Shown: positions 12,124 to 32,157 of the stretch, piece after piece
Position numbering within the stretch: the stretch's first letter is position 1
Layout of the letters: the number at the start of each line of letters is the position of its first letter
Origin: Escherichia phage vB_Eco_slurp01
Reading direction: 5' to 3' (one strand)
Sequence record: LT603033
Length of the DNA: 64,000 nt
Notes under the pieces: generated by a model
What the model was told of the DNA's origin: nothing
Database searches by the model: none
What the model saw: only the letters and a program-made list of their open reading frames with translations
Program-made: the position numbers and the translations under genes

Positions 12124-12303
12124 TATAGCTAGGGGAAGCTCCGTAGTGGAAGCATTATACAGGCTTTAACATATGTTGCATATGTTAAAATTCAGCCTGG
12201 ACAAATGCGATCACTAGGATTCTCCCCAGGCTAAACCCCGTAATCATAGGTAGTCATAAGTAATCATATATAAACATTTATATGAGCACCGTAGAATCAC
12301 AGA

Positions 12304-12512
12304 ATGATTATATATGATTCAGTACTGATTAGTATAGACAAGATTGCTCAAGAATGCACGGAAATGTGTGTGAATGATTCAGTACTGATTAGTATAGACA
12401 AGATTGCTCAAGAATGCACGGAAATGTGTGTGAATGATTCAGTACTGATTAGTATAGACAAGATTGCTCAAGAATGCACGGAAATGTGTGTGAATGATTC
12501 AGTACTGATATG
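12304..12512. repeat. Tandem direct repeat, 60-bp unit x ~3.5
   Basis: Unit GAATGATTCAGTACTGATTAGTATAGACAAGATTGCTCAAGAATGCACGGAAATGTGTGT repeated head-to-tail. Confidence 0.9.
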
Positions 12513-12656
12513 CCACTAAGTAGGCAGAGGAAGTCTGCCGTACTTTGTAGTTTCCAAGCTCCTTTTCCATTTTGCAAATTACATCAAATGTAATCAAAAG
12601 TAATCACGCAATGATTAGTACTGAATTATTACTTTCACCTTAATTACAATTACCCT

Positions 12657-12674
12657 TTTACCCTTCGGGGTAAA
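12657..12674 (+). other. Stable hairpin with UUCG-type tetraloop
   Basis: TTTACCC-TTCG-GGGTAAA perfect 7-bp stem. Confidence 0.5.
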
Positions 12675-12885
12675 ATTCAATTACCCCTTGAGGCTCCAGC
12701 AAAAAGTTGGTTAGTACTCCATCCTAAATCTCGATCCTAAAAATTTTGGAGTACCTATGAAATAAAAGTTGGATCTTCGAAAGTTGAAATTTACGTTGGG
12801 ACGTTTATGATTTGTGGGATATAATGATGTTTGTAGTCGGGTAGTTCTCAAGAATATCAGTACTGAATAATGAAAGAAAGCTATT

Positions 12886-12913
12886 GACATTATGATTCAG
12901 TACTGTATAATGT
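12886..12913 (+). promoter_or_regulatory. Sigma70-like promoter in non-coding hub
   Basis: TTGACA N16 TATAAT; no convincing ORF downstream. Confidence 0.5.
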
Positions 12914-13102
12914 TCTACATAGCTTCAAGGGGTGATGAGTTGCTGCGAACAATTCATTTACTCTACCTCCTGTCGTGAGACAGTACAGAAAAGATAGTTC
13001 CTCCTGTGGTGGTACATCTTTTTGAACCTCATATGAAAATCGTAATAACAGTACTGATATTAACAGAATGGTGTCAGTACTGATTTTAATCTAAAGCATT
13101 AT

Positions 13103-13122
13103 ACCACCAGCTTGTGCTGGTG
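13103..13122. other. Palindromic hairpin made of two inverted Chi octamers (CCACCAGC-TTGT-GCTGGTGG)
   Basis: Read directly; perfect 8-bp stem. Confidence 0.6.
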
Positions 13123-13238
13123 GATTCCCTCTAACAGTATTCAGTACTACATGATGGTCTTCATCCTCCTAGGGTAACATAGTGAGGGCTATGATGGCAG
13201 TACTGAATACTCCCTTTCAAAAGATAGATCTATGGTAT

Positions 13239-13440
13239 AGTACTGACGGATTTTGGGTGTAGTTACCCTGGATGGATTTTGGGCGTAGATATGTCTAGCC
13301 CTCCAGAAGTCTGGAAGTAAAGATGGCTATCCATCTAGACGGCTAAACGGCTAGATTTCTGGATGGCTGGATGGCTAGACGTTTGGACGGCTAAACGGCT
13401 AGATGGTTACACGTCTGGAAGTATAGACGGCTAAATCAAA
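13239..13440. repeat. Iteron-like cluster of short direct repeats
   Basis: GACGGCTAAACGGCTAGAT x2, GGATGGCT x3, TCTGGAAGTA x2, ATTTTGGGCGTA x2-3; AT-rich tract follows at 13441-13460. Confidence 0.6.
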
Positions 13441-14060
13441 ATTTTATTTTGTTTTTCCAATAGTTCCCCTACCGCGTGGGGATAGTTTCCCCGCAGTATC
13501 TGGAGTTAGATTTTTCTGAATCTGGAATCATTATCTTATAAACTGGGGGCAATGTCAACGACCTGGACGGATATTTTTAAAAATTTTTTCAGTACTGAAT
13601 TTTGGGCGTAACTATGCACCCGGTGGGCTTGAGTCTTTCTCGACTTGATGGAACTATTATACAGTACTGGAAAAATAAAGCAATACCCTGGATGAAAAAA
13701 GTTTTAATTAATTTGCTTGCCATCCTGGGCCGGACTATGGTACTATAATTCAGTACTGAGAAAGTGCGTTAACCTGCTAGGGTGCGGGAGTGTATCCTTT
13801 TTTTATATCTTGAATTTTGGACGGATCTTCCCACCCCCTGGGGTATCCGCTTTCTCGCGTCTATGTAGTAATTATACGCTTTTTCAGGATCAAGTCAATA
13901 CCTAAAAACAAAATAATTGAAAATAATTTAACGCGTTTAAACGGCCCGTAAAGCCCTGGAATGATTGGAATGGTGCAAATGTATAGCTTGGGTGTATTAA
14001 TGCGTTAGAATGCGTCTGAGGCCGTTTTACGGGGTGTAGTAGTGATTTGGTGGATTGATT

Positions 14061-14215
14061 CAGTACTGAATAATAGTACTCCTATATAGAAAGATAGTTC
14101 CCCTGGATGGTTGCAGTACTGAATAATAGTACTCCTATATAGAAAGATAGTTCCCCTGGATGGTTGCAGTACTGAATAATAGTTCCCCTATATAGAAAGA
14201 AAACTATTTTAAAAG
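14061..14215. repeat. Tandem direct repeat, 53-bp unit x ~3, immediately upstream of first early promoter
   Basis: CAGTACTGAATAATAGTACTCCTATATAGAAAGATAGTTCCCCTGGATGGTTG repeated. Confidence 0.85.
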
Positions 14216-14231
14216 TATTTGTAGAAAGTAC

Positions 14232-14259
14232 TTGCAAACTATGTTTAACGGCGTATAAT
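14232..14259 (+). promoter_or_regulatory. Early promoter, sigma70-like
   Basis: TTGCAA N16 TATAAT. Confidence 0.7.
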
Positions 14260-14272
14260 GTTTTACATCGAG

Positions 14273-14291
14273 AGCGGGAACACTTCCCGCT
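14273..14291 (+). other. Promoter-proximal hairpin (AGCGGGAA-CAC-TTCCCGCT)
   Basis: 8-bp stem immediately downstream of predicted start site; member of the recurrent hairpin class. Confidence 0.6.
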
Positions 14292-14314
14292 ACATATTAC
14301 GAGAGATTAAAACG

Positions 14315-30437: not shown

Positions 30438-30465
30438 TTGACAGTACTAACCAGTAATGTATAAT
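30438..30465 (+). promoter_or_regulatory. Early promoter
   Basis: TTGACA N16 TATAAT; hairpin 30478-30498. Confidence 0.7.
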
Positions 30466-30520
30466 GTTTTACATAGAGCGGGGGAATAGTTCTCCCGCCA
30501 ATAGTTTGGAGTAAAACATT

Positions 30521-30721
30521 ATGTCTATCGCTCTCGCCCTGGTTGAAGTACTGAAAGAAGCTAAAGCCAACCTTATCGATGTACAGATTAAGGAATTGCA
30601 AAATGGTTTAATCGGCTGTACTTGTACCGCTGGTGGAGCGGCAGACTATCGAGAACACGAATCACTAGAATCGTTGGTCCGGTATCTTACAATCATCGTA
30701 GAAGATTGGAGAATCATCTAA
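30521..30721 (+). CDS. Hypothetical early protein (66 aa)
   Basis: ORF track; TGGAG RBS. Confidence 0.7.
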   Translation: MSIALALVEVLKEAKANLIDVQIKELQNGLIGCTCTAGGAADYREHESLESLVRYLTIIVEDWRII

Positions 30722-30725
30722 CAAA

Positions 30726-30870
30726 AAAGAATAAAAAAGGGATTGACTCCGGTCAGTCCCTTTGCTATTATATACGCATAGACAAAAACTAGCCCACAGG
30801 GTGCATAGGTGTATCTAAAATATATAGTTAATAACGGTGAGTAACTATCTGCTGGTGGAGTGAAAACTAT
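30726..30870 (+). repeat. Repeated intergenic module, copy 4
   Basis: Hairpin + TTGACT-N17-TATTAT, CCCACAGGGTGC, Chi octamer at 30851. Confidence 0.7.
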
Positions 30871-30882
30871 TAATAAAAAGTA

Positions 30883-30913
30883 TTGACAAAGTATATCAGT
30901 ACTGCAATAATGT
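30883..30913 (+). promoter_or_regulatory. Promoter (weaker -10)
   Basis: TTGACA then CAATAAT region. Confidence 0.45.
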
Positions 30914-30964
30914 ATCTCGTAGGGCGGCAATGGTGCGACGGTCCACAAAGTTAGGAGATTCAAA

Positions 30965-31297
30965 ATGAGTACTTCAATCGCTATCGTTAAAGCTTTCATC
31001 CGTACCAATGTTTCATCTGTATTCATCGACGGTCTGGATCGGGAAGTAGAATACTCAATCATTATCGCACAGACTGCAAACGGTGCTCGGTATATCCTTA
31101 ATGATAGTGAAGCAAATCACTACTACTTCACTAAAGCTACTGGCTTTAAACGCATCGATGCTGACGTAGTATACGCTAAGATGAATAAGCTGGTAGACAA
31201 GATTAACGCGAAAGGTACTATCGATTTACAGTACTGGACCGAAACCGATCCAGAATATGGATCTCACCGCTACCTGAATCCAGGTATTAAAATGTAA
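30965..31297 (+). CDS. Hypothetical protein (110 aa)
   Basis: ORF track; TAGGAG RBS. Confidence 0.7.
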   Translation: MSTSIAIVKAFIRTNVSSVFIDGLDREVEYSIIIAQTANGARYILNDSEANHYYFTKATGFKRIDADVVYAKMNKLVDKINAKGTIDLQYWTETDPEYGSHRYLNPGIKM

Positions 31298-31304
31298 AAA
31301 GTAC

Positions 31305-31332
31305 TTGCATAGTACTTAGAATCAAGTATAAT
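31305..31332 (+). promoter_or_regulatory. Early promoter
   Basis: TTGCAT N16 TATAAT; hairpin 31347-31364. Confidence 0.7.
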
Positions 31333-31386
31333 GTTTTACATAGAGAGGGGGAAATGGTTCTCCCTCCTAAATTAAGGAGTTTTATC

Positions 31387-31788
31387 ATGACCTTCTCAAT
31401 CAATTCCTTCGCTGACGTTTTAGTACTGGCTCGGACTTTTGGTAAAGATGCACTGGAGTACGCTGTAAGTAATGGTACTATCCAACCGGAACAGTGCCGC
31501 ATCATTGGAAACTGCAAACGTTGGGCGGTATCCAATACTATTGCACTGGAAAACTTCCACGATGGCAACAATGAATATTCTGTTGATGTAGTATTCGAAG
31601 CCGTTGATCTCGGCGGTATCTATAATACTAACCTGAATGATGTGCGTATCGTTCGCACGGGGTTCGGTGCTTATGATGTATCTATTCGTGAAGCTATGAA
31701 CACCGGATACATTAGCAAGGACTTACTTGCTCACATCATGCAGCTGTGTACGGAACGTAACGAAGCACGCACTATCTTAGGACTGTAA
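31387..31788 (+). CDS. Hypothetical protein (133 aa)
   Basis: ORF 31354..31788 trimmed to MTFSINS after AAGGAG RBS. Confidence 0.7.
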   Translation: MTFSINSFADVLVLARTFGKDALEYAVSNGTIQPEQCRIIGNCKRWAVSNTIALENFHDGNNEYSVDVVFEAVDLGGIYNTNLNDVRIVRTGFGAYDVSIREAMNTGYISKDLLAHIMQLCTERNEARTILGL

Positions 31789-31856
31789 GCGTTACACATC
31801 ACCAAACATCATAGGCCGCCTTGTAGCGGCCTTAACTATATCAGGAGGGCATACAT

Positions 31857-32066
31857 ATGTTCTATACAGTATACAGCGTTCTAGGTACTATTGCAGGCGT
31901 ACATGATAACGTCAATGATGCTATGCGTACAGTACTGCAACAGGTTCCACTAAAGCCTAAGACCATTAAGCAGATGACAGCACGACTAACCAGGGCGACC
32001 GATGGCGTGGAAGTATGGCAGGACTACGGGGATACACAGATAATCGTTAGCGTAACGAAGGATTAA
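31857..32066 (+). CDS. Hypothetical protein (69 aa)
   Basis: ORF track; CAGGAGGG RBS. Confidence 0.65.
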   Translation: MFYTVYSVLGTIAGVHDNVNDAMRTVLQQVPLKPKTIKQMTARLTRATDGVEVWQDYGDTQIIVSVTKD

Positions 32067-32092
32067 TGCGTAAAGGGATCTAGTACTGATTC

Positions 32093-32157
32093 AGAAAAAA
32101 GTCAAGGCGTTTTTAAAATTATGCGTTAAAAAAATGCATAGGTAATCCCTTGACTTT
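32093..32157. repeat. 13-bp perfect inverted repeat AAAAAAGTCAAGG...CCTTGACTTTTTT flanking a ~40-bp spacer
   Basis: Read directly; sits at the boundary between early region and family B array. Confidence 0.6.

Follow-up and report, generated by a model that had tools for sequence, protein, structure and literature searches.

The closest described counterpart of the element treated here is HIP1 (GCGATCGC) of cyanobacteria, a highly iterated palindrome for which about 30 years have brought no agreed function. In Escherichia phage vB_Eco_slurp01, the hexamer AGTACT is repeated on a comparable scale. Within a 64,000-nucleotide stretch of its DNA (record LT603033; hereafter the window, to which all positions refer unless another record is named), AGTACT occurs 264 times, as against 19.7 ± 4.5 expected from dinucleotide-preserving shuffles (largest shuffle, 32), and it is best classed as a virus-borne form of highly iterated palindrome. 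The source of the window is an Escherichia coli jumbo myovirus of the 121Q/PBECO4/G17 group (Asteriusvirus-like), and megablast returns stretches of 93-97% identity in many such genomes. The same window contains a run of about 8 kb whose sense strand is entirely devoid of the trinucleotide ACT, which is a discovery separate from the AGTACT enrichment and the more surprising of the two. Here the nearest known cases involve endoribonucleases of short specificity, of which MazF cuts at ACA, ChpB at ACD, MqsR at GCU, and Salmonella MazF-SEA at UACG and UACU (for MazF-SEA, PMC10864209).

A first-pass annotation of this DNA had put the number of AGTACT copies between 12,300 and 32,100 at dozens, where roughly 7 would be expected; this is correct but understated, as the interval holds 136 copies against 6.4 expected, and a further 128 (15 expected) lie in the window outside it. 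Among the 6-bp palindromes in the window, enrichment was seen for AGTACT only, at 12-fold. About 24 GC-containing palindromic hexamers, including GGATCC, CTGCAG, GGTACC, CCATGG and GTCGAC, have no copy in the window, and 23-29 palindromes per sample are likewise absent from its relatives; such zero-copy palindromes are the usual sign of strong restriction-site avoidance. The palindrome CGATCG also has 0 copies. For practical purposes, the genomes of this group carry about 900 ScaI sites (AGTACT).

The bases flanking AGTACT are variable and show only a symmetric preference, namely C before and G after the hexamer, with outer flanks that are T-rich on one side and A-rich on the other. This symmetry is that of the reverse complement and thus belongs to the DNA: C occupies position -1 in 42-46% of sites and G position +1 in 48%, while G is found at -1 in 8%. 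The form CAGTACTG is present in 55 copies. Clustering of the window sites by flank similarity yielded 193 independent contexts, 177 of them singletons, with 33 members in the largest cluster; the sites are therefore not copies of one repeat. The coding DNA of the window contains 174 sites, compared with 56 after shuffling of synonymous codons and 22 after shuffling of codon order. Sites fall in all three reading frames (68/34/71) and reach 8 per kb in non-coding DNA, and AGTACT accounts for 21% of the window's ACT trinucleotides.

A k-mer count at the scale of a whole genome, made in the complete relative phAPEC6 (352,598 bp), bears out the enrichment: AGTACT occurs 918 times against 120 expected (7.7-fold), and CAGTACTG 198 times against 3.5 (57-fold). 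Every 5-kb bin of this genome is enriched, those with replication and structural genes included, except for two AGTACT-free blocks; these are the only such stretches in the genome, and both correspond to blocks lying in the window, one being the ACT-free run and the other an array of paralogous genes (Table 1). Density peaks at 6-7.6 per kb in the region that matches the terminal repeat described below. Beyond the repeat, the phAPEC6 genome has 2.3-3.2 sites per kb (0.34 expected); across genes the density there stays level at 2-3 per kb, with dips only at start and stop codons, and enrichment at gene boundaries was therefore rejected. The three reading frames are used 339/125/187 times. Sites outside the repeat are spaced some 400-470 bp apart, slightly more evenly than at random (coefficient of variation 0.87), and neither helical phasing nor strong periodicity of the sites was found.

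AGTACT is kept by purifying selection. When the window was aligned to phAPEC6 (94.6% identity), with composition-matched hexamers as controls, per-base divergence was 0.021 within sites, compared with about 0.05 over 15 nt of flank to either side and 0.041 in the control hexamers. Correspondingly, 94.3% of sites were intact, as compared with 83.8% of controls (p = 2e-6), and the difference holds for coding and non-coding DNA alike. Gains and losses of AGTACT between the two sequences are equal, at 13 each. The one-mismatch neighbours of AGTACT are not depleted as a set; they occur at 0.6-3.5 times expectation, and most are enriched. Over a longer distance, tail-sheath orthologues from four genera (70-73% amino-acid identity) carry 6-11 AGTACT each where about 0.9 would be expected, and two AGTACT columns of their alignment are common to all four.

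The enrichment extends, at 5-16-fold, to the phages RaK2 of Klebsiella (7-fold), GAP32 of Cronobacter (15-fold), CBB of Pectobacterium (16-fold), Munch of Salmonella (6.7-fold) and fHe-Yen9-04 of Yersinia (6.1-fold). A related phage of Pseudomonas, PA5oct, lacks it (1 copy against 8.4 expected), as do the unrelated coliphages rV5 (2 against 5.9) and T5 (3 against 6.6). The trait is thus one of a lineage, and a generic effect of the host is ruled out by the rV5 and T5 controls.

The first-pass annotation contained neither this genome-wide and clade-wide reach nor the identity of the interval on which it had focused. In fEgEco12, the verified left terminus maps to 12,519 of the window and the end of the direct terminal repeat (DTR) to about 32,218, and the interval is therefore the terminal repeat. 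Asteriusvirus repeats of this kind measure about 20-21 kb, with 20,668 bp in Sharanji and 20,993 bp in fEgEco12, the latter confirmed by PhageTerm and restriction digests (PMC13070987); the terminal repeat of CBB is 22,456 bp. AGTACT density in the window is highest in the DTR. This region also has 108 sigma70-type promoter-like matches, 10 of them perfect, compared with 68 in shuffles, while the 17 kb beyond it show no excess (87 against 99.5).

The positions of AGTACT were analysed in 39 strong sigma70-like promoters of the + strand, and in 35 of these early promoters the hexamer stands at a fixed place. In the largest class (18 promoters) it lies next to the -10 element, starting 7-8 nt before the -10 hexamer (AGTACTG/TATAAT), and in 10 more it lies over the -35 element (AAAGTAC/TTGCAA), with its start at -27 relative to the -10 hexamer. 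On the same scale, it starts at -30, just upstream of the -35 element, in three promoters, and at -17/-18, in the last base of TTGACA, in four. Several promoters have two sites, and the pair then brackets the -35 element at a spacing of 20-24 bp, an arrangement that, judged by its sequence, looks like an operator layout. The two promoter contexts quoted in the first-pass annotation are thus real. Its suggestion of a regulator site is a reasonable inference from the fixed positions built into early promoters. The 39 promoters together hold only 45 of the 264 sites (17%). A parallel claim, that AGTACT is embedded in the hairpins of the RCC1 cassette, is marginal: GCCAGTACAGTGTACTGGC has two copies, at 233 and 1,443, both outside the interval and carrying AGTACA/TGTACT without AGTACT, and only a few real stems, such as that at 13,049-13,082, carry the hexamer.

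In the ACT-free block, 0 ACT (124-185 expected) stand against 210 AGT on the sense strand, while elsewhere ACT occurs every 51 bp. A scan of all 64 trinucleotides on both strands identified this run as the only outlier in the window, at 22.6 times the expected longest gap (next highest, 2.7), and the same scan of the whole phAPEC6 genome again returned this block as the sole outlier, with 7,626 bp (about 309,139-316,763 of the record, in reverse orientation). The corresponding runs are 7,649 bp in G17 and 7,620 bp in PBECO4, and in the divergent ph0011 (76% DNA identity and about 55% protein identity) the block is still about 7-fold depleted in ACT. All of its roughly 20 open reading frames (ORFs) lack ACU, a state that no other gene of the genome approaches. 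Among the threonine codons of the block there are 0 ACT, 73 ACA, 20 ACC and 11 ACG, whereas neighbouring regions use ACT for 41-51%. The run stops about 30 nt into the gene that follows, immediately past a promoter-like site (48,272-48,300). Its ORFs belong to 17 unrelated families found in Asteriusvirus only, and their products gave no significant match in Pfam or PADLOC and, among PHROG families, matched only those of unknown function. A founder effect is ruled out by the 17 unrelated families among 20 ORFs and by the depletion in ph0011; a sequencing or base-calling artefact behind the blocks with AGTACA or TGTACT is likewise ruled out, the pattern being the same in the independently sequenced G17, PBECO4, phAPEC6 and ph0011. 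In the parts sampled of the RaK2, GAP32, CBB, Munch and Yen9-04 genomes, no trinucleotide-free run was seen.

With ACT at zero, neither AGTACT nor TGTACT can occur in the block, and both have 0 copies. In their place, AGTACA is found 43 times against 2.9 expected (15-fold, 5.2 per kb), at 16, 12 and 11 sites in the three frames and 4 in non-coding DNA. These sites are kept as AGTACA in G17, PBECO4 and phAPEC6, and are AGTACT in none of the relatives. As AGTACA is enriched precisely where the perfect palindrome is forbidden, a GTAC-centred signal is selected in this block too, with the hemi-site tolerated. The coding sequence of the block also contains AGTAC pentamers in tandem (CAGTACAGTACAGTACAC, plus two shorter runs; 44498-44513, 43188-43198 and 47321-47331).

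The ban on ACT is all-or-none, restricted to the sense strand, independent of frame and of the size of a transcription unit, as would be predicted for avoidance of a ribosome-independent endoribonuclease that recognizes 3 nt. Judged from the sequence, the most probable reason is that mRNAs from the block would thereby be immune to a putative ACU-specific endoribonuclease. ACA (233 copies), TACG (27) and GCT (60) are all present in the block, and no known enzyme of E. coli or Salmonella is specific for ACU only; the known enzymes thus do not fit, and the RNase would have to be a new one, of host or phage. No candidate for it was identified in the phage. Other words are also under-represented within the run, with TCT at 0.35, CTA at 0.35 and CTG at 0.46 times expectation and ACA at 1.76 times; the depletion of TCT may mean that the presumed nuclease also acts, less strongly, at UCU. 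The main alternative, which is feasible, is that a primase recognition triplet is missing from one template strand. The phage does possess its own primase and helicase, but this alternative explains the absoluteness of the ban and its gene-aligned boundaries less well.

As for AGTACT itself, the account tentatively favoured, at somewhat less than an even chance, is that it is a selected double-strand DNA signal for a putative clade-specific dimeric protein and additionally an operator at early promoters. The extended signal, (T-rich)-C-AGTACT-G-(A-rich), would be kept genome-wide in the Enterobacterales jumbo myoviruses of the RaK2/GAP32/121Q group and read by a homodimeric DNA-binding or DNA-processing protein. 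Outside the terminal repeat, sites placed regardless of genes would tag or organise the phage DNA, while in the sigma70 early promoters of the repeat, where they lie next to the -10 element or over or around the -35 element, their occupancy would switch off early transcription. Several points weigh against this account. Among the candidates considered, namely the two methyltransferases and SlmA, none could be named as the reader of AGTACT, and both binding and the repression of early promoters are what we infer. The sites in late structural genes are needless for promoter control, and a second, global role has to be assumed for them. The model offers no explanation for the paralogue array, which is old (median identity between paralogues 35%) and yet shows no enrichment, and, for a specific regulator, a core of 6 bp is short. 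Lastly, the tolerance of the AGTACA hemi-site in the ACT-free block fits single-strand recognition equally well, whether by a primase or by a strand-specific enzyme acting on the complementary 5'-GTACT-3'.

The null explanation raised in the first-pass annotation, that the enrichment comes solely from promoters and repeats present in several copies in the early region, with normal frequency elsewhere, can draw on the 45 promoter sites, on the flank cluster of 33, and on the tandem repeats at 12,314 and 14,061, which contribute about 9 sites. It is refuted, and retains practically no probability, by the 193 contexts, by the excess outside the interval and in coding DNA, by the bins enriched throughout the phAPEC6 genome save the two AGTACT-free blocks, and by the enrichment in other genera. 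A target of phage-directed DNA modification, whether methylation or another base change, with the palindrome kept because modified sites protect or regulate, is unlikely. In its favour, a short palindrome with symmetric flanks is typical of type II methyltransferases, the phage has genes for a C5-cytosine and a Dam-family N6-adenine methyltransferase, and the sub-motifs of HIP1 are targets of orphan methyltransferases. Neither phage enzyme could be linked to AGTACT, however. The C5 enzyme is assigned to CpG by bisulfite data from RaK2 (PMC3622015), the Dam-family enzyme is shared with more than 2,000 unrelated phages without such a motif, and no third methyltransferase was found next to it; methyltransferase co-occurrence was dropped as a lead on the last two grounds. 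Moreover, fEgEco12 DNA is cut as predicted by ten restriction enzymes, which speaks against bulk hypermodification (PMC13070987), and modification alone would leave the enrichment unexplained. It is very unlikely that AGTACT is a functionless by-product of biased mutation or of a very-short-patch-type repair that turns near-matches into the hexamer. Such a drive can also produce apparent conservation of sites, and a repair mechanism has been discussed for iterated palindromes, but its signature was rejected here because the one-mismatch neighbours are not depleted; gains equal losses, no Vsr-like enzyme was seen in the annotation, and the fixed promoter positions and the sites shared across four genera point to function.

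Recognition of a single strand would be an option if the phage primase used ACT as its recognition trinucleotide with a cryptic 3' T, in which case a preferred primer of five bases, pppGUACU, would be templated by 5'-AGTAC(T)-3', and the palindrome would serve both strands. On the model of the T4 and T7 primases, five templating bases and one cryptic base add up to the length of the motif. The phage's own primase, gp191c (phrog_47), adjoins a DnaB-like helicase, the sites are dispersed with slight regularity at about 470 bp regardless of genes, co-evolution with the primase would account for the lineage specificity, and the complementary strand of the ACT-free block retains 5'-GTACT-3'. This reading is nevertheless distinctly unlikely, as it leaves the fixed promoter positions and the symmetric C/G flanks beyond the hexamer unexplained. 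To our knowledge, known primases need no enrichment of their sites; the sense strand of the ACT-free block could then never be primed, and a total ban on ACT is harder to justify for priming than for cleavage. A role in RNA is decidedly improbable. AGUACU contains UACU and ACU, and its cutting by a MazF/PemK-like or phage endoribonuclease might programme mRNA decay in the manner of T4 RegB at GGAG; the ACU-less block independently suggests an ACU-directed RNase, the enterobacterial MazF-SEA cleaves U^ACU (PMC10864209), and both the peak of density in the early region and the share of ACT contained in AGTACT are in keeping with such a role. Yet the symmetric flanks, and sites that lie upstream of transcription starts, speak for double-strand DNA, ACU is present every ~50 nt anyway, such that extra sites add little, and an RNA signal needs no palindrome. 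Recruitment of a host protein of the Enterobacterales, for example the nucleoid-occlusion factor SlmA with its site GTGAGTACTCAC, is barely credible. The core hexamer AGTACT is identical (PMC3020112), and the trait is confined to phages of Enterobacterales and absent from the Pseudomonas relative, but SlmA requires G1, T2, a purine at position 3, A4 and G5 in each half of GTGAGTACTCAC. At position 3, phage sites have C in 46% and G in 8%, and only 1 of the 918 phAPEC6 sites fits GTNAGTACTNAC and 4 fit GAGTACTC; SlmA-binding sites were thus rejected on their flanking bases, and the unrelated coliphages rV5 and T5 are not enriched.

The features of the window are collected in Table 1.

Table 1. 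Features of the window, with strand and AGTACT content or basis.
Positions	Strand	Feature	AGTACT content or remark
1..12518		Unique region beside the right-hand copy of the DTR; - strand RCC1-repeat genes, plus small genes	54 against 4.1 expected
12314..12509	+	60-bp tandem repeat, 3.3 copies, 100% identity, TTCAGTACTGAT in each copy	Directly outside the left DTR boundary; ends 10 bp before 12,519
12519..32218		Direct terminal repeat (~19.7 kb), early genes for host RNA polymerase	132 (6.7 per kb) against 6.4 expected
12884..12911	+	Promoter TTGACA-N16-TATAAT, AGTACTG directly before -10	Promoter scan; second AGTACT 40 bp upstream
14227..14259	+	Promoter AAAGTAC/TTGCAA-N16-TATAAT	Promoter scan; AGTACT overlaps first base of -35
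19626..19661	+	AGTACT pair, 22 bp apart, around the -35 hexamer (CAGTACTaTTGACAtagtttgatAGTACTGgCATAAT)	Same layout at 22,460, 22,722, 26,475 and 30,109
32219..37450	+	Paralogue array: tandem, 23 overlapping paralogous ORFs of ~70-85 aa	0 against 1.7 expected
37451..40116	+	Island between the two gaps, normal high density	17 (6.4 per kb)
40117..48327	+	ACT-free block, zero ACT on the sense strand; 8,212 bp, about 20 ORFs and the DNA between them	0
48328..64000	+	Two arrays of paralogous genes, AGTACT enriched	61 sites, 2.5-6.4 per kb

The paralogue array starts at the DTR boundary, and its ORFs (32286-37381) form one family. Alone in the genome, it shows no enrichment of GTAC (15 against 16) or AGTACT, and its extent varies among relatives. 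The enriched arrays at the right end of the window show that paralogue arrays as such do not exclude AGTACT. TGTACT occurs 11 times in the array, at equivalent places in its paralogous genes. What ends the enrichment abruptly at 32.1 kb differs from what lies behind the later gap; an interpretation of the hemi-sites in the two blocks as divergent orientation around an origin was dropped, as those in the array reflect paralogue positions and those in the ACT-free block the ban on ACT.

At the opposite side of the DTR, the 60-bp tandem repeat may be a packaging or terminus-recognition element. Six tandem paralogous genes for proteins of ~370-430 aa occupy 258-7443 on the - strand and encode RCC1-repeat proteins according to the phAPEC6 annotation; the conserved GCCAGTACAGTGTACTGGC hairpins lie between two of the six. 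The first ~1.7 kb of the DTR (12519-14250) are non-coding and contain a 53-bp repeat (14,061-14,200, 2.6 copies), degenerate repeats of 16-48 bp (13,334-13,433) and many CCCTGG words. CCCTGG (13266-30537) is 9-fold over-represented (25 copies against 2.7), nearly always on the + strand, and 21 of the 25 copies are within the DTR. The E. coli Chi sequence (GCTGGTGG) is found on the + strand of the DTR in 9 copies against 0.1 expected (13116, 19002, 22975, 24020, 25288, 27636, 29051, 30629 and 30851), with - strand copies at 13104 and 5994. The copies at 13,104 and 13,116 form a back-to-back pair, ~600 bp away from the left end. As oriented in the DTR, Chi would halt RecBCD coming in from the right end of the genome. 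Within the first 50 kb of GAP32 and of CBB there are likewise 9 Chi each.

Taken together, the two main features allow a wider proposal, which is speculative and, as a whole, rather unlikely: AGTACT would be the first highly iterated palindrome to be carried by a virus, and the phage would deploy or face an ACU-specific endoribonuclease. Under this proposal, a clade-specific factor might read AGTACT, shut the early promoters in the terminal repeat and tag the whole 350-kb chromosome, while an operon of ~8 kb with about 20 orphan genes would be ACU-free, such that only its transcripts survive the cutting of other mRNA. Neither feature appears to have been reported before. The genome papers for RaK2, CBB, phAPEC6, Sharanji and fEgEco12 do not mention AGTACT enrichment, and literature searches covering the hexamer, CAGTACTG, palindrome over-representation in this phage group and RNases of jumbo phages yielded nothing relevant.

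A second, independent highly iterated palindrome would make the puzzle posed by HIP1 experimentally approachable. The advantages here are an E. coli phage that can be cultured and has a genome of 350 kb, a sharp phylogenetic boundary (PA5oct being without the motif), defined promoter positions, and a natural hemi-site variant in the ACT-free block. That block, for its part, predicts an RNase of new specificity (ACU), together with a novel means by which a phage may give preference to some of its own genes, and it provides a testable context for about 20 orphan genes. If this is true, the ACU-free operon would be the natural counterpart of synthetic expression systems from which cleavage sites have been removed. 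AGTACT density and the ACT-free run are, in addition, simple sequence markers for this phage group.

Comparison with known systems places AGTACT beside several of them. Like HIP1, it is a short palindrome that is hyper-abundant genome-wide, with the octamer at 46-70-fold, and it occurs in all reading frames and in intergenic DNA; its sites are more conserved than background and slightly evenly spaced. The enrichment is at or above an order of magnitude (12-fold in the window; 7.7-fold for the hexamer and 57-fold for the octamer in phAPEC6), as for palindromes of the HIP type. Unlike HIP1, however, it has a different sequence and is carried by a phage, it is fixed in promoters and peaks in a terminal repeat, and no methyltransferase with a matching sub-motif was found, where HIP1 has two. 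AGTACT is thus an analogue of HIP1 and not a member. As with Chi, the DNA uptake sequences DUS/USS and KOPS, about one site per 0.2-1 kb is kept by selection, in a lineage-specific manner and inside genes, sometimes as inverted pairs that form stems. Yet those markers are asymmetric and are read in one direction by RecBCD, competence pili or FtsK, respectively, whereas AGTACT and its flanks are symmetric and become one-sided only in the ACT-free block, where the ban on ACT forces it. In the manner of operators in sigma70 promoters, the palindrome lies next to the -10 element or around the -35 element at 20-24 bp in 35 of 39 early promoters, but this fixed relation holds for only 17% of the window sites; unlike operators, AGTACT is scattered some 900 times through coding DNA, and no repressor was identified. 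The hexamer is also the site of ScaI and Eco255I, and the phage does respond to restriction pressure, as about 24 other palindromes are absent; restriction targets are avoided, however, whereas AGTACT is enriched 8-16-fold (12-fold in the window). The ACT-free block resembles cleavage-site-free mRNAs, such as the ACA-less transcripts that escape MazF, synthetic MazF-resistant recoding and the T4 RegB/GGAG system, in that a trinucleotide has been removed from the sense strand in all frames and between genes, over a block of the size of a transcription unit. It differs from the targets of MazF, ChpB, MqsR and MazF-SEA in that ACU alone is avoided, and its avoidance is absolute over 8.2 kb, as compared with the mild avoidance of ACA (0.83-fold) in RNA phages.

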